Source: an uncultured Candidatus Saccharibacteria bacterium
GTDB taxonomy: Bacteria; Patescibacteriota; Minisyncoccia; Minisyncoccales; Staskawiczbacteraceae
NCBI GenBank assembly: GCA_964479955.1
Contig: CAYZNK010000002.1
Coordinates: forward strand, 71,489 to 135,488
DNA: 64,000 nt
Reading direction: 5' to 3'
In this document: positions 3,287 through 54,098 of the stretch, piece after piece
How the letters are laid out: each line of letters opens with the position of its first letter
Numbering within the stretch: the first letter of the stretch is position 1
Position numbers and translations under genes: made by a program
Notes under the pieces: generated by a model
The model's database searches: none
What the model saw: only the letters and a program-made list of their open reading frames with translations
What the model was told of the DNA's origin: nothing

Positions 3287-3418
3287 ATGAGGAAGGAGTG
3301 AAAATAAATTTTCACTCCGACCGAATGTAAAATTATATAAAAATTAAAATAGTTTTTCTATAATTTAAATGAGGAAGAAATGAAAATTTATTTTCATTTC
3401 GACTGAATGTAAAATTAT
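3278..3418 (+). repeat. tandem duplication (period 82 nt) of the ftsE stop region plus a hairpin
   Basis: ataatttaaatgagg...gaatgtaaaattat occurs twice. Hairpin 1 is ggagtgaaaa-taa-attttcactcc and hairpin 2 is gaaatgaaaa-ttt-attttcatttc (paired substitutions). Confidence 0.8.
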
Positions 3419-3452
3419 CAGGTTATAATCGTAAAATATTAAACCTTAAATA

Positions 3453-4367
3453 ATGATTACTTATTTAAAAAGGATTTTAAAATTTGCGTTTCAGGATTTT
3501 AACAGAAATAAGGGAATTTCCATTGCTGCAATTTTTGTTTTGATGATTACAATGATGCTTGTAAGCGGAATTTTTCTGACACAGGGAATGATGTCTTACT
3601 TAATTTCCGAAGTAAAAAATAAAATAGATATTACAGCATACTTTAAAGACGACACTTCAGAAGAAGAAATTTTGGCTGTCAAAGATGCAATATTGGCATC
3701 TTCTTCTGACATAAAAAACATAAAATATATTTCAAGGGAGCAGGCTCTGGTATCATTCAATCAAAAGCACGGAGACGATGCGGTTTTATTAAGGGCATTA
3801 GAGCAGGTTGGAGACAACCCGTTTTTGCCGTCTTTAAACATTGTCACAAATGGGGAGACAGCCCAGTATGAGCAGATTTCAAACACACTGGAAACTTCAA
3901 ATTATGCCAAGCTCATTGAAAAAGTTGATTATTCTGAAAAAAAAGATACAATAGAAAAGGTTTATTCAATTACCTCAAATGTCAATAAATTTGGCATAGT
4001 GGCCGGAATTGTTTTAATTATTATTGCAGTTTTAGTTGTTTTCAACACTATAAAGCTGGCTGTTGAGAGCTCAAAGGCGGAAATAAGTACAATGAGAATA
4101 GTTGGGGCTTCCGACTGGTTTGTAAAAGGGCCGTTTATAATCCAAGGGGTTATCTATGGGGTCATAGGATTTTTGATAAGCGCATTATTGCTGGGGATGT
4201 TTACTTATCTGCTCTCACCAAAAATTGCGCTAGTGCTTCCGGGATTTGATTTGTACGATTATTACTTTTCGCGATTTTGGCTCCTGTCTTTAATACAATT
4301 GATTTTTGGAGTTGGTGTGGGAATTGCCTCCAGCCTTATTGTAATAAAAAAGCATTTGGATATTTAG
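3453..4367 (+). CDS. ftsX: cell division permease-like protein FtsX
   Basis: 304 aa with an N-terminal TM, an extracytoplasmic domain and 3 C-terminal TMs. Sits downstream of ftsE. Confidence 0.85.
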   Translation: MITYLKRILKFAFQDFNRNKGISIAAIFVLMITMMLVSGIFLTQGMMSYLISEVKNKIDITAYFKDDTSEEEILAVKDAILASSSDIKNIKYISREQALVSFNQKHGDDAVLLRALEQVGDNPFLPSLNIVTNGETAQYEQISNTLETSNYAKLIEKVDYSEKKDTIEKVYSITSNVNKFGIVAGIVLIIIAVLVVFNTIKLAVESSKAEISTMRIVGASDWFVKGPFIIQGVIYGVIGFLISALLLGMFTYLLSPKIALVLPGFDLYDYYFSRFWLLSLIQLIFGVGVGIASSLIVIKKHLDI

Positions 4368-4381
4368 GAATTTAAAATCAT

Positions 4382-4452
4382 TGCGGGATCGTCTAATGGT
4401 AGGACATCGCCCTCTGGAGGCGAGTATCTTGGTTCGAATCCAAGTCCCGCAG
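4382..4452 (+). tRNA. tRNA-Gln(CUG)
   Basis: Acceptor tgcggga/tcccgca, anticodon arm tcgcc-ctCTGga-ggcga, T arm cttgg-ttcgaat-ccaag. 71 nt. Confidence 0.85.
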
Positions 4453-4454
4453 CA

Positions 4455-4619
4455 TTAGCAATCTTCAATATCTTTAGATATTGAAGATTGGTATTGTTAA
4501 GGCGGACTTTGTATGAGAACCAAGCCCCCGAATTGCGCCGAGCCAACAGGGAACCCCGCCACAGCGGGGCGAGGCGGCAATGCTTTCGAGAACTGCCTTC
4601 GAATCCAAGTCCCGCAGCA
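4455..4619 (+). repeat. tRNA-3'-end-associated hairpin element (copy at tRNA-Gln)
   Basis: Parts in order: a 15-bp AT palindrome (4459-4490), an inverted diverged copy of the tRNA-Gln 3' part, cccccgaattg, the hairpin cgaggc-ggcaat-gctttcg, then an exact 22-nt direct copy of the tRNA 3' end (4598-4619 = 4433-4454). Confidence 0.75.
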
Positions 4620-4739
4620 GTTTGAGTAAATTTTTAGGCGTTGCTAAATGCCTTAAAATTTACTCTTATAACAGCGGATTTTGTATAATAACCTTTAAAA
4701 TGGTTGAGTATATAATATTTCTATAGCGCGTTTTACTTT

Positions 4740-5372
4740 ATGAAAAATATTATGAAAAATAAAATAATAACAATAATAATCTTAATCGTTGTTGTTATAG
4801 TTTTGGCAGGAGGCATTGTTTATTATATAAAACAAAATAAACCAATGTCTGGAATCGGTATTACAGAAAATAATCAGACGGCTAATGAGGAGCAACTACC
4901 AAACAAAATAGTGACTGATGATTTTTCCATTACTCTTCCAATAGGATGGAGCAAAACTACTAATACGGTGCCAGGTGTTTTGGCTTTGGCTGCCAATCCT
5001 AATGAAAAGATTAATGACGAAGCAGCAGAAAAGATTAATTTTAAAAGTTATTTAGCAATAAGTTCCGAAGCGCTTTCCGGAAAAAATTTGGAAGAATATA
5101 TGCAATCTACCAAAAATGAAATACAAGCAACGATTTCCGGAACTATTTTTAGTAATGAAAATGCTTTAATAATAAACAATAGGTCTGCCCGCGCCGTTGA
5201 GGCAGAAATGACTCAGCAGGGAGTGGATTTTAAAGTTTTAATGGTTGTAATCAATGGAAACAGAGATAGTGTTTGGGTATTATCCTACAACACTACAAAA
5301 AATGATTGGGCTGGTTATAAAGATCATTTTGCCGAAAGCGCTAAAAGTTTTATCATAAAGAGTGAAAATTAA
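4740..5372 (+). CDS. membrane-anchored or exported hypothetical protein
   Basis: 210 aa with an N-terminal hydrophobic anchor. No motif recognised. Confidence 0.6.
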   Translation: MKNIMKNKIITIIILIVVVIVLAGGIVYYIKQNKPMSGIGITENNQTANEEQLPNKIVTDDFSITLPIGWSKTTNTVPGVLALAANPNEKINDEAAEKINFKSYLAISSEALSGKNLEEYMQSTKNEIQATISGTIFSNENALIINNRSARAVEAEMTQQGVDFKVLMVVINGNRDSVWVLSYNTTKNDWAGYKDHFAESAKSFIIKSEN

Positions 5373-5670
5373 AAATTGAAAAAAATCCGACAATAGAACA
5401 AAAAGACTTAATACCAATCTCAAGTCTTTTTTTAAGTTTATTTTTGTTTTATTCTTCTGTCTTTGCCGTGGCTTAAATCTAATCTTTTTGCCAAATTGGC
5501 AGGTATTGTTTTAACCCTTAAATTTTTTATAGGGCGGGGGATTGGTTTTTGCCCCTGATTTTTTTTGGAAAAATATTGATTCATGCCTTTATTATACACT
5601 AAAATTAAAAAGCTTTTAATTGCCAAAATTTTTTGTTAAAATAAAATAATAAAATTAAAATTTTAATATT

Positions 5671-5982
5671 ATGGCAAATATTGAAAAAAGAGACCCTGTG
5701 CTGGTTGTTATTTTAAGTATAATCACACTGGGCATATACATAATTTACTGGTTTGTAAAAACCAAAGAAGAAATGAAATCCCTTGGAGCCGATATTCCAA
5801 CAGCTTGGTTGATAATAGTTCCTGTTGCCAATGTTTATCTGCTTTATAAATACTGTGAAGGGTTTTCTGTTTATGTTAAAAAAGATAATATGGGGTCCGT
5901 ATGGTTTTTAGTTGCCTTGGCAATCCATATTTTAATAATTCCAATTATTCAAGTTGAGTTAAATAAATTGGCAGAAGCTTAA
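5671..5982 (+). CDS. small membrane protein (DUF4234-like)
   Basis: 103 aa with 3 TMs. The ILSIITLGIYIIYWF motif resembles DUF4234. Confidence 0.5.
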   Translation: MANIEKRDPVLVVILSIITLGIYIIYWFVKTKEEMKSLGADIPTAWLIIVPVANVYLLYKYCEGFSVYVKKDNMGSVWFLVALAIHILIIPIIQVELNKLAEA

Positions 5983-5985
5983 TTT

Positions 5986-6897
5986 ATGGCTTATTGGCTG
6001 ATTGTTATAATAATAGCGTATTTCTTTTTTGCTCTGTCTGCTCTTGGGGATAAGCTTGTTTTGGCTGGCCCCGCAAACCCCAAGGCATATGTGTTTTATG
6101 TTGGGTTATTGAGCATACTGGCTGTTTTTTTGATTCCGTTCGTTGGAATTAAAATTCCCACAACGGGCATGTTTTTTCTGATTGCACTTGATGCAATTAT
6201 TTTTTATATTGCTTTGTATTTTGGGTTTGTGGCAGTTGAAAAATTTGAGATTTCAAGGGTTGCTGTAACAATAGGGGCAACCCAGCCCATATTTATATTT
6301 TTTGTTTCATGGATTTTTTGGGGGTACCAGGGAATTGGATTTTTGGGATTTTTGGCGTTTATTTTTTTGTTTTTAGGAAGCATTATTGTTTCTTTTGACA
6401 AGAAGCTGGAATTTAAAAACAAATACCTGGCGCTTACTCTTTTTGCATCATTGATGTATTCTTTTGATTATTTGATGTCAAAATACATTTTTGAATATTT
6501 TTCCTTTTGGCACGGAATAATATTCAAAAGCGTATTTTTATTTTTAATTTCCATTAGCTTAATTTTAATAAAAAAGAACAGGCAGGAAATCTTAAAGAAA
6601 AATAAAAATTCAGAAAAACAGAAATCATTTGGCAAGTTATTTTTAGCAACGCAGGCATGCGGGGCAGGGGCTAATGTTTTGCAGAGTTTTGCTATTTTTC
6701 TAACGCCGGTGGGATTTTTGCCGGTTTTAAATTCATTAAGGGGATTGCAATATATTTTCTTGTTTACATTTACTTTGTTTATAACGCGTTTTTTCCCTAA
6801 AATCCTCAAAGAAAAAATTTCAAAGAAAACAATAACCAGAAAGGCATTTTCCATTCTTTTAATTATTCTTGGCCTGACGGCTTTGATTTTTTGCTAA
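5986..6897 (+). CDS. polytopic membrane protein, DMT/EamA-like
   Basis: 303 aa with about 10 hydrophobic helices. The family call is tentative. Confidence 0.45.
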   Translation: MAYWLIVIIIAYFFFALSALGDKLVLAGPANPKAYVFYVGLLSILAVFLIPFVGIKIPTTGMFFLIALDAIIFYIALYFGFVAVEKFEISRVAVTIGATQPIFIFFVSWIFWGYQGIGFLGFLAFIFLFLGSIIVSFDKKLEFKNKYLALTLFASLMYSFDYLMSKYIFEYFSFWHGIIFKSVFLFLISISLILIKKNRQEILKKNKNSEKQKSFGKLFLATQACGAGANVLQSFAIFLTPVGFLPVLNSLRGLQYIFLFTFTLFITRFFPKILKEKISKKTITRKAFSILLIILGLTALIFC

Positions 6898-35713: not shown

Positions 35714-36094
35714 ACATATATAACAATTAAAAACATAAAGACAAAATCACTATATATTCTTCCCGTCATTGCGGGATCCCCCGCTAAGCGGGGGAAAAAC
35801 TAAACAGCGTTTTAAGAATATCCGTGAAGGCAGGTTTTAAAGGTCTGTCTTCACGGGTATTTTTTCTTCTTGGCTGAACGGAAAGCCTTTTGATAATTGA
35901 ATAATGGAAACCAGTTTTAAAAACTGGGAAAAAATTGAATTAGCGGAGTGTCCACAGTACTGAAAATTTCTACGAAAATTTTAGCGCTGAGAGAATTCAC
36001 TTCGTGTAATTCGTTTCTTAAAGTTGTTTCGAATCAAAGCTTGTCGAGTGCTTAACTCGACAGTAGTTTATTCTAACTAGAGTAATCAACTTTT

Positions 36095-37556
36095 TTTTGA
36101 GAGTTTGATCCTAGCTCAGGGTGAACGCTGGTAACGTGGATACCGGCATGCAAGTCGAGCGGACCGCAAGGTCAGCGGCGAACGGCATAGTAACACGTGG
36201 GTACAAACCCTTTTCTCGGGTATAGCCAGCCGAAAGGTTGGGTAATTCCCGATAGTTCTCGCAAGAGTAAAGTCGCAAGACGGAAAAGGATTGGCCCGCG
36301 GCCTATCAGATTGTTGGCAGGGTAACGGCCTACCAAGTCTATGACGGGTAGGGGGCGTGAGAGCGCGACCCCCATGAATGGCACTGCGACACGGGCCATA
36401 CTCCTACGGGAGGCTGCAGTCGAGAATCTTCCGCAATGGGCGAAAGCCTGACGGAGCGACGTTACGTGAATGAAGAAGCCCTTCGGGGTGTAAAGTTCTT
36501 TTATGTGGGAATAAGTTATTGAAGGTACCACATGAATAAGAGGATCCTAATTCTGTGCCAGCAGGAGCGGTAATACAGAATCCTCAAGCGTTACCCGGAT
36601 TTATTGGGCGTAAAGGGTCCGTAGGTGGTAAAGTAAGTTTTGAGTTAAACCTCATCGGCTTAACCTTTGAGCTATTCAAAATACTGCTTTACTTGAGGGC
36701 GTTATGGGTGAACGGAACCGACGGAGTAGGGGTGAAATCCGTTGATATCGTCGGGAACACCAAAAGCGAAGGCAGTTCACTGGGGCGACCCTGACACTGA
36801 GGGACGAAAGCGTGGGTAGCAAAAAGGATTAGATACCCTTGTAGTCCACGCCGTAAATGATGAATACTAGCTATTGGCAGTGTCGACCCTGCCAGTGGCG
36901 AAGCTAACGCGTTAAGTATTCCGCCTAGGAAGTACGGTGGCAACACTAAAACTCAAAGGAATAGACGGGGACTCACACAAGCGGTGGACCATGTGGCTTA
37001 ATTCGACAACAAACGAAGAACCTTACCAGGTCTAGAAATCTGCATGAAAGCCTTCAGAAACGTTGGCCCTTCACAAGACATGCAGACAGGTGCTGCATGG
37101 TTGTCGTCAGTTCGTGTCTTGAGACGTACCGTTAATTCGGGTAACGAACGCAACCCTTGCCGTGTGTTTTAAATGTCACACGGGACTGCCCGAGATAATT
37201 GGGAGGAAGGCGAGGATGACGCCAAATCAGCATGGCCCTTTGATGACCTGGGCCGCACACGTGGTACAATGGCCGGTACAATGGGTTTCGATGCCGCAAG
37301 GCGGAGATTAATCTCATCAAAACCGGTCTCAGTTCGGATTGAGGGCTGAAACCCGCCCTCATGAAGCTGGAATCGCTAGTAATCGCCAATCAGCTATGTG
37401 GCGATGAATACGTTCCTGAGTCTTGTACTCACCGCCCGTCAAGCCAAGCGAGCTGGGGATAGCCGAAGTGCCCGCAAGGGCCCTAAGCTAGATTCAGTAA
37501 GAGGGGCTAAGTCGTAACAAGGCACGGCTAGCGGAAGCTGGTCGTAGATCATTTTT
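36095..37556 (+). rRNA. rrs: 16S rRNA (stand-alone; no linked tRNA or 23S)
   Basis: Starts near gagagtttgatcctagctcag and ends ...aagtcgtaacaaggcacggctagcggaagctggtcgtagatcattttttt. Flanked by a processing stem (36013-36036 pairs with 37690-37713) and a terminator at about 37762-37790. Confidence 0.9.
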
Positions 37557-37840
37557 TTAAAATTTTGTATAGAAACCTTTTGGTTTATATACAAAATGGA
37601 ATGTAGTCGGCTCAGAGTGATTCGATAAACTCAGTTCGATGAGTATATCGAATTGTTCTGAAGCATTTTAGCAGATTTGCTTGAAAATCGCATTCGAAAC
37701 AACTTTAAGAAACTAATTTTTCCACAGAAAAATTATCCTGAGATTTTCGAAGGGTAAGACATTACTCCGTCAAAAGCGGAGTTTTGTTTTGATTAAGGTT
37801 GTTCTTGAAAATTAGTTGGAAAAGAATTAAGCTATCTTAT

Positions 37841-48374: not shown

Positions 48375-49020
48375 ATAATTACATGATGAAAAAACAAACC
48401 AATAAATTTAACAAAACAAGCGGATGATTGTCTGACTTTTTGTGTTAGTAGATGACCGCTTGAATAAGCGGTTTTAAATTTATTGAAAATCAGTTTGCCG
48501 GCGATTGAAAATATAAATTGTTTTCAGCCGCGGGTTAATTGATTGAAGCGGAAGCAAAGATTGCTTTTTGAAAATTTAACCCTGTTAAATGTTTTAAATA
48601 ACAAATTGCCTACCAGCAATTTTTAACAGGTTCTTCCCAATTAATTTTAGACATGGGGTCTTTTTAATTGGGGAAAGTAGGTAAGTCCTGTTAAAATTTT
48701 AACAGGATAAAGCATAAAATTAAGTTCACATTTGCGTTGATGATTCAGCGCAAAAAAGTAAACTTACGCAAAAAGATAAGCTTAACAATTAAGTTTATCG
48801 AAGGATAGGTTATAAGCGAATGGCGGATGCCTTGGGATATTGATGCGATGAAGGACGTGGCGTGCCTGCGATAAGCATCGGGGAGGTGGCTAGCAACCTT
48901 TGATCCGGTGATTTCCGAATGGGAAAACCTTATTGTGTTAATCCACAATAACCCCGCCTTGGCGGGGAGCGTACCCGGTGAAGTGAAACATCTCAGTAGC
49001 CGGAGGAAAAGAGAACAAAA

Positions 49021-49289
49021 GTCCTACAACTTACAAATTTTATCAATTTAGCGAAGCGAATTTTGAGACAAATTCGCGACGCGAGGAGCAGTGCGTGCCA
49101 AGTGGCACGAGAGCGACGAAGCAACAAAGAATTTGGCCAAAATTCGTTCGCCCGAAGGGAAACGAAAAAAATGGCTGATTTCTTTGTTGCAACTTCGTTA
49201 ACGTAGTTAACACTATGTTTCCTCGTTGCGCCTCGAAATCATCACATTTTTTCGTTTCTAAATATGACGAAATTTGTAAGTTGTAGGAC
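49021..49289 (+). other. 23S insertion sequence 1 (IVS-like), closed by a 20-bp perfect helix
   Basis: gtcctacaacttacaaattt (49021-40) pairs with aaatttgtaagttgtaggac (49270-89). It lies between GAGGAAAAGA and AGTAGTGGCGAGCGAA. Confidence 0.75.
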
Positions 49290-49346
49290 AAGTTATATCC
49301 TTAGTAGTGGCGAGCGAAAAGGATACAGCCTAAACTAATTTTTTTA

Positions 49347-49505
49347 CACCGCTACTTTTTGATAATTTTCGTAACGAAATAAAATAATTTTGCGCGAGAA
49401 TTTGGAAATGCAAGGAGGTTTGCCAAGTGGCAAGCCGACGAGCAGTTACAAATTTGTAGCCGAAATTATTAATTGCAGTAGAAAAGTTATCAGAAAGTAG
49501 CGGTG
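49347..49505 (+). other. 23S insertion sequence 2 (IVS-like), closed by a 19-bp helix
   Basis: caccgctactttttgataa pairs with ttatcagaaagtagcggtg (one G-U pair). It shares a gccaagtggca...cgacga.gca block with insertion 1. Confidence 0.7.
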
Positions 49506-49861
49506 AAATTAGGGTTGTAAGGTTGTAGCGTCAGGAGCGTTATTTATTCTTCGTATAGTCGAAGAACGAATAATGCTTGCTGAGAGAGAAAATTTAGATA
49601 AAGGTTTTAATAGAAGCACTCTGGAAAGAGGCGCCATAGAAGGTAATAGCCCTGTATATAAAAAAACTATTTATGCTCTTTGCTATGATACTTGAGTACT
49701 GTCGGGCATGATAACCTGGCAGGAATCTACCGGAACTATCCGGTAAGGCTAAATAATCAATATCACCGATAGTGAACCAGTACCGTGAGGGAAAGGTGAA
49801 AAGCAGGGGGTTGACCCCGATGAAATAGTACCTGAAACCATTTGCTTACAAAGAGTCGGAG

Positions 49862-49943
49862 GTCTTCACCTTTTGGGTGTTGAGTTTAATTGTGGAACAA
49901 AACAATTTCCACAAAAATAATTTGACCTTCAAAAGGTGAAGAC
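49862..49943 (+). other. 23S insertion sequence 3 in the helix-25 region
   Basis: gtcttcacctttt pairs with aaaaggtgaagac, a 13-bp perfect stem. Confidence 0.7.
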
Positions 49944-50586
49944 TGACGGCGTGCTTTTTGTAGAACGAGCCAACGAGTTTGAATAATCAATAGTCTAAGC
50001 CCTTACGGGGCGGAGGCACAGCGAAAGCGAGTGTTAAAAGCGCGAAAAATTATATTGGTTGTTCAAGACCCGAAGCCAGACGAGCTTACCGCGAGCAGGA
50101 TGAACCCGGGCGAAAGCCAGGGGGAGGTCCGAACCAGTGAGTCGTGCAATTCTCTTGGATGACTTGTGGTAAGGAGTGAAAAGCTAATCGAGTTTGGTAA
50201 TAGCTGGTTCTTCCCGAAACAGCTTTGGGGCTGGCGTGTACAAACTATTTTCCGGGGGTAGAGCACTGAATAGAATTCCGTGGAGTTTCTCCAGGTCTTC
50301 TAATCAAACTCCGAATACCGGAAAAACTATGTATGCAGTAAGAACGCGGGGGCTAAGCTCCGCGCTCAAAACGGAAACAGCCGAGATCATCGTCTAAGGT
50401 CCCTAAATTAGGCTAAGTGCTAAGAAGGAGGTATTTTACCCTTGACAGGCAGAAAGTTAGCTTAGAGGTAGCTATCTTTTAAAGAGTGTGTAACAACCCA
50501 CTGCCCAAACTTTCCCGCTTGCGGGAGAGAGGGGTGAGATGCGCCAAAGATTTCCGGGGCTAAAGTCTAATACCGAAGACATGGAT

Positions 50587-50712
50587 TCATTCGCATCACA
50601 CTGCGTGTGATGTTAAATGACCAAAAACCAAAAACCAAAAATATTTAATATTTTGGGATTTGAGAATTGGAATTTGGGAATTTAAGCATCGTGCGAAGCG
50701 CGATGCGAGTGA
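50587..50712 (+). other. 23S insertion sequence 4 in the helix-45 region
   Basis: tcattcgcatc pairs with gatgcgagtga. It contains a CA-repeat / UG-repeat hairpin (50621-50683). Confidence 0.65.
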
Positions 50713-51003
50713 GTGGTAGGGAAGCATTCTGAGGGCATTGAAGCAGGAGGGTAACCGACTGTGGAGCGCTCAGAAGAGAGAATGTTGGCCTGAGTAACCG
50801 CATTGCGCGTGAAAGCCGCGCACACCGAAAGTCCAAGGTTTCCTTGGCAATGGTATTCAACCAAGGGTTAGGCGGTCCTAAGGCAAACCTGAAAGGGGTA
50901 GCTGACGGACAGTTGGTTAATATTCCAACCCTTTTTTATCCGTTCAATAAAGTGCGGAATTTAGTAGGTAAAGCGATTTATTGGATTATCGTTGTTAGTC
51001 AGA

Positions 51004-51030
51004 CCTGTCTGCCGTCAGGCAGGCGCAAGA
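51004..51030 (+). repeat. CCTGYCTG...CAGGCAGG palindromic element, copy inside 23S
   Basis: cctgtctg-ccgt-caggcagg-cgcaaga. Confidence 0.6.
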
Positions 51031-51420
51031 ATGGCTAACGGAAGGTCTCTTTATGGGGCTGACTTTACTGAGCAAGTTTCCAAGAAAAGCTTTATTTAAA
51101 TAGGATAAAGAAACCGTACCGTAAACCGACACAGGTGGACAAGCGTAAGTATGCTAAGGTGAACGGGTGAAACCTCGTTAAGGAACTCGGCAAATCAGTG
51201 GCCGTAAGTTCGCAATATGGCCTGCCCGACACGCAAGTGTTTAGGGCTGCAACAAACGTACTTCAACCGACTGTTTATCAAAAACACAGCTCTCTGCTAA
51301 CTCGTAAGAGGATGTATAGGGGGTGAGGCCTGACCAGTGTTGGAATGTTAAGTTTGGGGGTCCAAGCCGCAAGGTTTGGGCTCACTGAATGAAGCACCAA
51401 TGAACGTCGGCGATAACTAT

Positions 51421-52151
51421 AGACTGACGATTGTAGTTATAAAATTTGGCTATATGCTGGAAACTCCGGGTATGTTGAACTACTATCCGTTACTATGATA
51501 AAATATATAGTAATGGAAGTAAAAATGTTTAAACGCGGACAATCAGCAGGAAAGACTTTTGACGAGAAACTCGCTAACTACTTGAGCGGTTTTACTGATG
51601 GCGAAGGAAGCTTCAATATTTCAGTAATTAATCGTGAGAAAGACTATAAACACGGCTGGAAAATCAGCTTGTGTTTCAATATTTCTCAAAAAGATGACAC
51701 AATACCAAGATTATTTAAGGATTTTCTTGATTGCGGTAAAATAAGATACCGCAAAGATGGAATTTGTTATTTTGATGTTAGAAAAACAAAAGATTTAACA
51801 AATATTGTTGTGCCATTCTTTAAAAAATTTCCAGTGCGTTCAAAGAAAAATGAAACTTTTCAGATTTTTTGTGAGGCGTTGGAGATTGTTAAATGTAAAA
51901 AACATTTAACAAAATCCGGAATGAAAAAAATTCTGGATTTGAGAAATAAAATTGTAGTTGGCAGAAAAAGAAAGTATACAAATTCAGAGATACTTTCTAC
52001 TTATAATCAAAAGAATCCTCAGAGACTATACGCCAAACCCCGCTTAGCGGGGAAGATATAGTCCGACCTGCATAGCGATATGCAGAATATAATAGAAATA
52101 TTATATCAAGATACTAAAACTGACTTAATTTAGTATTAGTAACATAAAAAG
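51421..52151 (+). mobile_element. group I intron in the helix-69 loop (after the U equivalent to E. coli U1917)
   Basis: The exon ends ...gataactaT and resumes aatcgtccaaaggtagcg. Intron guide gtagttat (51433-40) pairs with the 8 exon nt ataactat via G-U at the splice site. The intron ends in G and has the core motif aagatatagtccgacc. Confidence 0.8.
51495..52061 (+). CDS. LAGLIDADG homing endonuclease (intron-encoded)
   Basis: YLSGFTDGEGSFNISV motif. The ORF lies inside intron 1 and ends within the core motif. Confidence 0.8.
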   Translation: MIKYIVMEVKMFKRGQSAGKTFDEKLANYLSGFTDGEGSFNISVINREKDYKHGWKISLCFNISQKDDTIPRLFKDFLDCGKIRYRKDGICYFDVRKTKDLTNIVVPFFKKFPVRSKKNETFQIFCEALEIVKCKKHLTKSGMKKILDLRNKIVVGRKRKYTNSEILSTYNQKNPQRLYAKPRLAGKI

Positions 52152-52815
52152 AATCGTCCAAAGGTAGCGTAATCCCTTGCCGGGTAAGTTCCGGCCCGCA
52201 TGAATGGCTTAACGAGTTGAAGACTGTCTCAACGAGGTGCCCGGTGAAAATGCAATAGCAGTGAAGATGCTGCTTACCTGCGGCTAGACGGGAAGACCCC
52301 GGAAGCTTTACTGTAGTTTGATATTGGGTTATGGTTTTTAATGCGTAGCGTAGTGGGGAGGATATGAAACGGCATTTTCGGATGTCGCGGATCCGCCAAT
52401 GAAACACCCATCTTTGGGAATTATAATTCTAATCCACGCCTCAACGGCGGGTGACAGTGTTAAACGGGCAGTTTAAGTGGGGCACTTGCCTCCTAAAAAG
52501 TAATGGAGGCGTTTAAAGGTCAGCTAGCTTCGGATGGAAATCGAAGCGATAGTGTAAAGGCAAAAGCTGGCTTTACTGCAAGACGGCTATGTCACGCAGT
52601 TGCGAAAGCAGAACTTAGTGAACCGACTTGTTTTTATAGAAAACAAGAAGATCATCAGCCAAAAGCTACTCCGGGGATAACAGGCTGGTAGAGCCCGAGC
52701 GTCCATAGCGACGGCTCTGTTCGGCACCTCGATGTCGGCTCAACTTATCCTGGGGCTGGAGCAGGTCCCAAGGGTCCGGCTGTTCGCCGGTTAAAAAGTT
52801 ACGCGAGCTGGGTTC

Positions 52816-52846
<31 letters not shown>

Positions 52847-52884
52847 ACCGCAGGCGTTGAGTTTTGAGGAGATTTGTTCCTAGT

Positions 52885-53667
52885 AAAATTTTGCTACTTC
52901 GTAAAGTAATTTACGATGACAATTCGGCTAATAACGGTGAAACCTTAAAAGTTATGGTTCGTTGATAATCATTATTGAATTCGGTCCAATAATAATGGTA
53001 CAATTAACTTGAGGACCAATAATAATTTAAGGCAATACCGTGGGAAGTCAATCTAAAATAAATTTATCATATATAGCAGGTTTTCTGGACGGAGATGGCA
53101 GTCTTATGTTTCAAATAAAGAAGCGCAAAGATTGCAAATTAAAAAGTAGATTTATGGCAACTGTTTGTTTTTACCAAGACGGTCGCCACGAAAAACCACT
53201 TTTTTGGATCAAAAGAATTCTCGGTATCGGTTTTATTTCCCGTCGTAAAGATGGAATGACCGAACTGAGAATAAATGGCTTTAAACAAGTAAAAGAAATT
53301 TTGCAAAAGTTAATGCCGTTCATTAGATTTAAAAGAGAACAGGCAAAAGCCCTTTATGGAGCTGTTAGTCTTTTAAATCAAAAAGAAACAAGGTTATTAG
53401 ACAAAAAAGATTTACTAAAATTAGTGAATTTTATAATAACCATCCAAAAAAATAATTACATCGCCAGAAAAAAGAAAACCAAAGCAGATATTTTTAAAAT
53501 TTTAGGTCTGACCCCGTAACGACTGATCCTGAGTCCTGAGTTTATTGAAGGACGAAGGAGAGATAGAAGTGAGATATCTTCTATAACATGCCGACTCCCC
53601 AATTCGCCAGTTGGCGAAAGGGAGAAGATATAGTCTATGCACGTGGTGACACGTGGTTTAAAACATG
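52885..53667 (+). mobile_element. group I intron inside the sarcin-ricin loop (after the U equivalent to E. coli U2656)
   Basis: The exon reads ...ttcctagT | intron | ACGAGAGGACCGG. Guide gcta (52893-96) pairs with exon tagt via G-U. The intron ends in G and has the core motif agaagatatagtc. Confidence 0.7.
53040..53519 (+). CDS. LAGLIDADG homing endonuclease (intron-encoded)
   Basis: YIAGFLDGDGSLMFQI motif. 159 aa with a GTG start, inside intron 2. Confidence 0.8.
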   Translation: MGSQSKINLSYIAGFLDGDGSLMFQIKKRKDCKLKSRFMATVCFYQDGRHEKPLFWIKRILGIGFISRRKDGMTELRINGFKQVKEILQKLMPFIRFKREQAKALYGAVSLLNQKETRLLDKKDLLKLVNFIITIQKNNYIARKKKTKADIFKILGLTP

Positions 53668-53985
53668 ACGAGAGGACCGGAATGAACTGACCTCTGGTGT
53701 ACCAGTTGTTCTGCCAAGAGCATCGCTGGGTAGCTAAGTCGGGAATAGATAAGCGCTGAAAGCATATAAGCGCGAAACTAACTCCAAGATGAGAACTCAA
53801 GACCCTTAAAGGTCTAATGATTCCCCGCAGATGACGGGGTTGATAGGCTCCAGGTGTAAGTCCCGTAAGGGATTCAGCCGGGGAGTACTAATAAATCATT
53901 TATCCTTCGATATACTTAGTTTTTAAGTTATCGGGTAAGTTTACAGAACTTAATTTTAAATTTTCAAATCCGGAAATTGAGTTTT

Positions 53986-54098
53986 CCGGTGGCGACTATG
54001 CTGGAGTTGTCCCACCTGATCCCATTCCGAACTCAGAAGTGAAATACTCTAAGGCCGATGGTAGCGCTTATGCGCGAGAGTAGGTAGTTGCCACCAGA
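53986..54098 (+). rRNA. rrf: 5S rRNA
   Basis: ccggtggcgactatgc...cccattccgaactcagaagtgaaa...gtaggtagttgccaccag. Confidence 0.85.

Follow-up and report, generated by a model that had tools for sequence, protein, structure and literature searches.

A probable mobile group I intron with a LAGLIDADG endonuclease gene in the sarcin-ricin loop of a Patescibacteria 23S rRNA gene

The window analysed here, a stretch of DNA of 64,000 nucleotides, carries a 23S rRNA gene whose sarcin-ricin loop is split by an inserted block of 783 nt on the plus strand, leaving CCUAGU upstream and ACGAGAGGACC downstream of the insert. We conclude that this block is, with high probability, a mobile group I intron of the type found in CPR rRNA genes, inserted after the nucleotide that corresponds to U2656 of E. 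coli. It combines the hallmarks of the class, namely a P1 helix with a U•G pair, a terminal G, a P3-P8 core with the P3/P7 pseudoknot, and a J8/7-P7 element. A first-pass annotation of the same DNA had already proposed a 783-nt group I intron with a LAGLIDADG gene at this place. The block was confirmed from the sequence, and the proposed class is upheld by the covarying core and by the Pfam match of the encoded protein.

The Rfam models located the rRNA genes of the window as follows:

36093-37559, 16S rRNA gene
48803-53899, 23S rRNA gene
53988-54096, 5S rRNA gene

When the whole window was searched, the LSU match stopped at 52881; rRNA gene finders truncate the 23S gene at the L2656 intron. 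No intron interrupts the 16S gene, which is situated 11 kb upstream of the 23S gene. Protein ORFs and a tRNA gene occupy the gap, and the rRNA genes therefore do not form one compact operon. Neighbouring genes encode ordinary bacterial proteins, that is, FtsZ, MreC, penicillin-binding protein 2, and PEP synthase. All named relatives of the FtsZ protein belonged to Candidatus Staskawiczbacteria (57-76% identity). Together with the relatives of the endonuclease described below, this identifies the host as a CPR (Patescibacteria) bacterium.

The junctions read ...TTGTTCCTAGT / intron AAAATTTTGCTACTT...AAAACATG / 3′ exon ACGAGAGGACCGG, and the wider flanks of the block are ...GATTTGTTCCTAGT on the 5′ side and ACGAGAGGACCGGAATG on the 3′ side. 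The Rfam bacterial LSU model aligned CCUAGUA, then a 792-nt insert, and then GGAAUG, which is the 3′ strand of helix 95. The insertion thus lies within the helix 95 loop, and the exons around it were otherwise fully conserved in this alignment. On E. coli rrlB, TAGTACGAGAGGACC corresponds to positions 2653-2667, with A2660 and G2661 at the expected places, so that the final base of the 5′ exon is U2656 (site L2656). The LSU model and the rrlB numbering therefore agree with the position after U2656 given by the first-pass annotation. The extent of the intron is defined by these features:

52885-53667, plus strand, whole group I intron (from the sequence, the LSU model, the rrlB numbering, and homologues)
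53667, plus strand, terminal guanosine (omega G), a G in 108 of 108 complete homologues among the matches listed
53668, first base (A) of the 3′ exon, equivalent to E. coli A2657

Since an A stands first in the intron and also in the 3′ exon, any alignment leaves an ambiguity of one base. Alignment alone can therefore not decide whether the insertion follows U2656 or A2657, as a published label, 'position 2657', might suggest. However, only the U2656/A2657 boundary gives a 5′ exon with a final U and an intron with a final G, a rule obeyed by all 108 complete homologous introns among the matches listed. With an insertion after A2657, the intron and the 5′ exon would each end in A, which would break both the U•G pair of P1 (kept in 104 of 106 relatives) and the terminal G (108 of 108) among the matches listed. 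The covariation of P9.0 beside the terminal G and the U•G pair of P1 fix both splice sites and favour U2656/A2657, and we regard a boundary after A2657 as extremely unlikely.

Homologous introns were collected with two sequence patterns. A genome scan used the 14-base pattern GACGAGAGGACCGG, which consists of G followed by ACGAGAGGACCGG. Among the 120 matches listed, 114 were chance matches from GC-rich genomes, and the true ones comprised five same-site introns and one sarcin-ricin-loop variant. The five introns resided in CPR assemblies (Paceibacterota, Yanofskybacteria, two labelled Saccharibacteria, and one more). A metagenome scan with a 26-base pattern, spanning the junction and the 5′ end of the intron, matched at least 120 contigs, so that the arrangement seen in the window is no product of chance. 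At least 108 complete same-site introns, 282-877 nt long and with or without an ORF, were cut from these contigs. In 108 of 108 complete introns among the matches listed, CCTAGT preceded the intron and G preceded ACGAGAGGAC. The main alignment, made with MAFFT after trimming of the P6 loop, comprised 106 unique homologous cores among the matches listed, and slid pairing partners served as controls. A second, independent MAFFT alignment of 18 sequences (the window core and 17 short introns) was evaluated by pair counting and 500 shuffles.

The resulting structure model consists of the following elements:

52881-52896, plus strand, P1, formed by exon UAGU (52881-52884, E. coli 2653-2656) and intron A1-A2 with UUGCUA (52891-52896)
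52900-52915, plus strand, P2 hairpin of 6 bp with a GUAA loop
52924-52928, plus strand, P3 5′ strand, UCGGC, partner GCCGA at 53590-53594
52934-52938, plus strand, P4 5′ strand, ACGGU, partner ACCGU at 53037-53041
52943-53032, plus strand, P5 and its long arm, with 52943-52949 paired to 53026-53032
53040-53519, plus strand, LAGLIDADG endonuclease gene (159 aa, single motif), which fills the P6 loop
53042-53049, plus strand, P6 5′ strand, GGG[AA]GUC, partner GACCCC at 53510-53515
53510-53515, plus strand, P6 3′ strand, GACCCC, which doubles as the last ORF codons
J6/7, with the sequence GUAA
53519-53524, plus strand, P7 5′ strand, A[C]GACU with a bulged C, partner AGUCU at 53632-53636
53527-53559, plus strand, P7.1 hairpin (minimum-energy fold)
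53563-53584, plus strand, P7.2 hairpin (minimum-energy fold)
53590-53594, plus strand, P3 3′ strand, GCCGA
53595-53624, plus strand, P8, with a CUCCC/GGGAG outer stem and a UUCGCC/GGCGAA inner stem
53625-53636, plus strand, J8/7 and P7 3′ strand, AAGAUAU and AGUCU, family-invariant
53637-53639, plus strand, P9.0 5′ strand, AUG, partner CAU at 53664-53666 directly before the terminal G
53640-53655, plus strand, P9 hairpin of 6 bp with a GUGA loop

These elements include those on which the first-pass annotation had based its proposal. CCUAGU, and hence a final U, precedes the intron, the guide GCTA was found at intron positions 9-12, the core motif AGAAGATATAGTC at 53623-53635, the terminal G as the last base, G53667, and the 159-aa ORF in the P6 loop.

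The pairing was well preserved across the family. In the main alignment, the P1 pairs were canonical in 104-106 of the 106 unique homologues. The wobble U52884•G52893 at the 5′ splice site was a U•G in 104 of the 106 among the matches listed, the intron-side pair varied between AU, GU, and GC, and P1 was 97.2% paired by pair count in the 18-sequence alignment. P2 was 99.8% canonical in the 106 sequences with four to six pair types per position, and the 18-sequence alignment revealed compensatory changes in five of its six pairs. For P3, we observed 97.5% canonical pairs (106 sequences; variants UA/GC/AU/CG, CG/UA, and GC/AU) versus 12-31% in the slid controls. P6 was 99.8% canonical in the same alignment, and its two pairs closest to the L6 loop showed compensatory changes (from UA to AU or CG in one, from CG to UA or AU in the other). 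P9.0 reached 91% (106 sequences; types AU/GU/GC, CG/UA/AU, and GC/AU) versus 13-14% when slid by one position in either direction, and all three of its pairs showed compensatory changes in the 18-sequence alignment. P9 was 100% canonical in the 106 sequences with compensatory changes in five of six pairs; its fold was weaker, with z = -1.75 and 17 of 200 shuffles folding equally well. Sliding P2, P3, P6, P9, and P9.0 by one or two columns lowered the canonical fraction in the 106 sequences to 12-68%. The basal pairs of P5 covary (CG/UA/GU), as do the five pairs of the P8 outer stem, four of which carry compensatory changes in the 18-sequence alignment. Taken as a whole, 98.1% of the cells of the 18-sequence alignment were paired, versus 35-43% after sliding, and 24 pairs had changed on both sides. 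Neither the pairing nor the covariation score observed was equalled in any of the 500 shuffles.

P4 and P7 were both 100% paired in the 106 sequences. P4 was invariant except for a change from GC to GU in five sequences, and P7 was invariant except for its outermost pair, A53519-U53636, which changes from AU to UA in two sequences. Covariation can therefore neither support nor contradict either helix. P7 is the presumed guanosine-binding helix, an assignment that we base on its position and its likeness to P7 of the Tetrahymena intron. In the peripheral regions, thermodynamic folding gave -21.7 kcal/mol (z = -3.3) for the P5 arm and -16.4 kcal/mol (z = -4.8) for P8. The minimum-energy fold of 53525-53589 consists of two hairpins (-19.6 kcal/mol, z = -3.0), and two hairpins between P7 and P3′ were present in every relative inspected by eye. 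Within the P5 arm, the GGUCC/GGACC pairing hardly varies and is 85% canonical, but a different pairing competes with it. P7.1, P7.2, the inner P8 stem, and the P5 extension did not align in register with MAFFT (48-77% paired in the 106 sequences, near the slid controls), and we therefore claim no covariation for them. For P10, at most one base pair was found.

An Rfam search of the whole window and of the 23S gene yielded no group I match for the L2656 intron. A narrow permissive search returned RF00028 with 27.9 bits (E = 1e-4), below the gathering score of 50, and aligned only J8/7-P7-P9 confidently. RF00028 recognises only 45% of CPR 23S insertions (PMC11270868). The shortfall reflects how far one general model can reach; a score above its threshold does not define group I RNA as a class. 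Because the Rfam match was below threshold, family membership was established by the comparative analysis. Regarding the subgroup, Michel and Westhof are said to have used P7.1/P7.2 hairpins between P7 and P3′ as a mark of subgroup IA. Membership of the intron in IA3 is likely, given that its relatives are inserted at sites of the LSU 2500/2593 type and that its endonuclease is similar to I-CreI.

The 159-aa protein contains one LAGLIDADG_1 domain (Pfam PF00961, 39 bits versus a cut-off of 23.1). Its best solved relatives were I-CreI, I-MsoI, and I-CvuI, with E = 1e-10 to 1e-23. FLDGDGS aligns with the catalytic motif FVDGDGS of I-CreI, including the catalytic acidic residue with which the motif helix ends, and the longer motif YIAGFLDGDGS was at least 95% conserved in 75 ORFs of same-site introns. 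We obtained 2,520 homologues of the endonuclease (E <= 1e-5). The best 120 of these 2,520 were almost all 159 aa long, and their named sources (Daviesbacteria, Staskawiczbacteria, and 'Patescibacteria group') are CPR. Palindromic symmetry of the intron-less target DNA was dropped as evidence for a homodimer: 4 of 11 positions about the insertion are palindromic, no better than at neighbouring offsets.

Gene and ribozyme share sequence at both ends of the ORF. The GUG start overlaps the P4′/P6 junction, the UAA stop lies inside J6/7, and a Shine-Dalgarno-like AAGG (53030-53033) overlaps the P5 3′ strand at its 3′ end. Relatives without an ORF, such as L080, retain the P6 strands and the RNA elements overlapped by the ORF. 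These elements are therefore parts of the ribozyme, around which the gene has been fitted. In 53026-53049 and 53510-53519, the ribosome-binding site, the GUG, the last codons, and the stop are built from P5, P4, P6, and J6/7, so that folding of the core and translation of the ORF should be mutually exclusive. The P6 loop ranged from 6 to 549 nt among the matches listed, and 75 of 113 same-site introns among these matches had an ORF of at least 140 aa, the others being empty or decayed. This is the usual cycle of gain, decay, and loss of a homing endonuclease.

According to our model, exon UAGU of the precursor rRNA would pair with the internal guide GCUA in P1, and the U2656•G pair would mark the site of cleavage. 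This 5′ splice site would be attacked by an external guanosine bound in P7, and P9.0 would then put the terminal G53667 into the same pocket, whereupon the exons would be ligated. Ligation would restore the universal AGUACGAGAGGA loop; the predicted RNA junction is CCUAGU-ACGAGAGG, with ...UUCCUAGU joined to ACGAGAGGACC and a loop reading CCUAGUACGAGAGG. The endonuclease presumably acts as a homodimer that cuts intron-less sarcin-ricin-loop DNA, for example the 40-bp GATTTGTTCCTAGTACGAGAGGACCGGAATG, and repair of the cut DNA would copy the intron in. The intron is probably self-splicing. EF-Tu and EF-G must contact the sarcin-ricin loop. Splicing, exon ligation, and DNA cleavage by this system are strongly favoured because the core covaries and an unrepaired sarcin-ricin loop is incompatible with translation. 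That efficient splicing is essential for this rRNA, as the first-pass annotation had stated, can reasonably be inferred from the position of the intron. Since the 50S precursor would be inactive until the intron leaves the loop touched by EF-Tu and EF-G, guanosine-dependent splicing might also be read as a last checkpoint that ties ribosome activation to nucleotide supply in these bacteria with reduced genomes, rather than as the activity of a neutral parasite. We consider such a role very unlikely; the pattern of presence and absence and the decaying ORFs look like ordinary turnover of a selfish element.

Other fates of the insert have to be weighed against splicing. RNase III-processed intervening sequences occur in the 23S rRNA of many bacteria, and CPR 23S genes, including the 5′ domain of the present one with several examples, carry non-intron insertions. 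Excision of the block in this manner, without ligation, would leave the 23S rRNA broken within the sarcin-ricin loop. Ribosomes are inactivated by one break there, such as the alpha-sarcin cut after G2661, and an intervening sequence of the RNase III type has no need of a covarying group I core, a U•G pair, a terminal G, or P9.0. We regard excision alone as highly improbable. The same holds, to the same degree, for an intron that is retained in the mature rRNA or an rRNA operon that is a dead copy. Retention has a precedent in the L1931 23S group I intron of Simkania negevensis, which stays unspliced (Everett et al. 1999, cited in PMC11270868). However, with 783 nt inserted between U2656 and A2657, the loop to which the translational GTPases bind would be lost, the exons are otherwise fully conserved, and more than 100 lineages show clear structural selection on the core and P9.0. 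Moreover, CPR genomes usually have one rRNA operon (PMC11270868).

Somewhat more weight, though still little, can be given to the idea that the intron is not truly self-splicing and needs the LAGLIDADG protein as a maturase. Maturase-like activity is known for a LAGLIDADG protein from a 23S intron of Thermotoga (PMC3984707), and the location of the start codon and the ribosome-binding site within P4/P5/P6 couples translation and folding. Yet 38 of 113 same-site introns among the matches listed lack an ORF of at least 140 aa and have the same core and splice-site features. A protein encoded in cis is therefore not generally required, which leaves an intron whose RNA core probably splices by itself as the preferred reading.

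The site itself is known. Tsurumaki et al. (2024, J Bacteriol, PMC11270868) surveyed 348 CPR 23S genes, of which 82% carried insertions, and recognised 14 sites of frequent insertion. LAGLIDADG_1 proteins were located predominantly at positions 1917, 1931, 1952, 2593, 2604, and 2657 (23IS6-8 and 23IS12-14). 23IS14, 'position 2657', is listed there as a group I site that is often occupied in CPR 23S genes and is rich in LAGLIDADG_1, and group I introns at this site, among others, were previously unreported in bacteria (PMC11270868). The intron described here shares with 23IS14 the gene, the site within 1 nt, a group I-like RNA, a LAGLIDADG_1 ORF, and a CPR host. The labels 2657 and 2656 differ because alignment to E. 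coli cannot resolve the repeated A. Thus, the L2656 intron is an ordinary member of a published class. The 23IS14 paper (PMC11270868) offers no secondary-structure model and is silent on the sarcin-ricin loop, and the enzyme that it assayed comes from a different site, 23IS7; the P1-P9 model with covariation for L2656 introns was derived in the present analysis.

Position 2656 is absent from the text and the intron table of an archaeal survey (Nawrocki et al. 2018, PMC6125680) and from a 2014 review of bacterial group I introns, and our literature search found no earlier report of an intron at L2656 or in the sarcin-ricin loop except the CPR survey (PMC11270868). The first-pass annotation had noted that the site is missing from common catalogues. 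This is true of the classical ones, which lack L2656, yet the site is now published and very common in nature. The novelty thereby implied does not stand, given the description of 23IS14 (PMC11270868) and the recurrence of the site in more than 100 metagenome contigs and several CPR genomes. As a discovery, the intron thus carries little weight, since introns at L2656 are abundant in CPR bacteria and already catalogued. The structure model with its covariation could seed a dedicated covariance model for a family that the general Rfam model misses. The putative I-CreI-type enzyme, whose presumed target is conserved in nearly all bacteria, could interest meganuclease engineers.

Two further systems resemble the L2656 intron. 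The Chlamydomonas reinhardtii chloroplast 23S intron that encodes I-CreI likewise interrupts the large rRNA in domain V/VI and is of group I, subgroup IA3; its ORF has a location comparable to that of the P6-loop ORF here. I-CreI, I-MsoI, and I-CvuI are single-motif LAGLIDADG proteins of about 160 aa, like the present protein, to which their similarity is moderate and extends over 100-130 residues. In contrast, the insertion sites differ (2593 versus 2656), and therefore so do the guide sequence and the DNA target. Archaeal and bacterial IA3/IB4 introns at LSU positions 1917, 1923, 1931, 2500, and 2593 (Nawrocki et al. 2018, PMC6125680) share the lifestyle of the L2656 intron: they are of group I, bear homing-endonuclease genes, and interrupt universally conserved rRNA sequences in uncultured lineages with small genomes.

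The L1917 site of this set is also occupied in the present 23S gene, so that the L2656 intron is indeed the second of its kind in the gene, as the first-pass annotation had reported. The first intron, at 51421-52151, follows E. coli U1917 (exon ...AACTAT / AGACTG...AAAAAG / AATCGTCC) and contains an ORF for a 188-aa LAGLIDADG_1 protein at 51495-52061 (Pfam, 82.7 bits). Its match to RF00028 was below threshold (38.5 bits). The core does not contain the motifs GTAACGACT and ACCGTGGGAAGTC of the L2656 family and therefore represents a different ribozyme lineage. Further insertions without group I-like character were located at about 49020-49291, 49346-49505, 49531-49590, and 50504-50714. Those in the 5′ domain measure about 272, 160, and 60 nt and fall at LSU model positions of about 229, 290, and 312, while at 50504-50714 the stretch equivalent to E. 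coli 1106-1186 is longer by about 130 nt. We found no convincing ORF and no Rfam match in these insertions, which may be expansion segments or intervening sequences of the RNase III type.

Three of the metagenome and genome matches deserve mention. An intron-less 23S gene (L112, oriented about 2900-2950) reads ...GGCTGACCTTAGGACGAGAGGACCGGG in place of the universal CCUAGUACGAGAGG, and the alteration affects the very bases of the sarcin-ricin loop that flank the L2656 insertion site. Either an error of sequencing or a genuine variant could explain the change, and a genuine variant might be an allele that resists homing. In a MAG with the label Candidatus Saccharibacteria (L052, oriented 422-1240), there is a same-site intron whose ORF is split by a frameshift into 89-aa and 87-aa parts, and this endonuclease gene is a decaying copy; Saccharibacteria were nearly free of such introns in the 2024 survey (PMC11270868). 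Finally, a contig of Candidatus Yanofskybacteria (L079, JACPNL010000019.1, oriented 3304-6849) carries four introns in the last few hundred exon bases of the 23S gene. Two of the three introns at other sites share the core motifs AACGGTG, ACCGTGGGAAGT, CCCCGTAACGACT, and TATAGTCT with the L2656 intron. Apparently, one ribozyme lineage has colonised several rRNA sites by means of a changed guide sequence.
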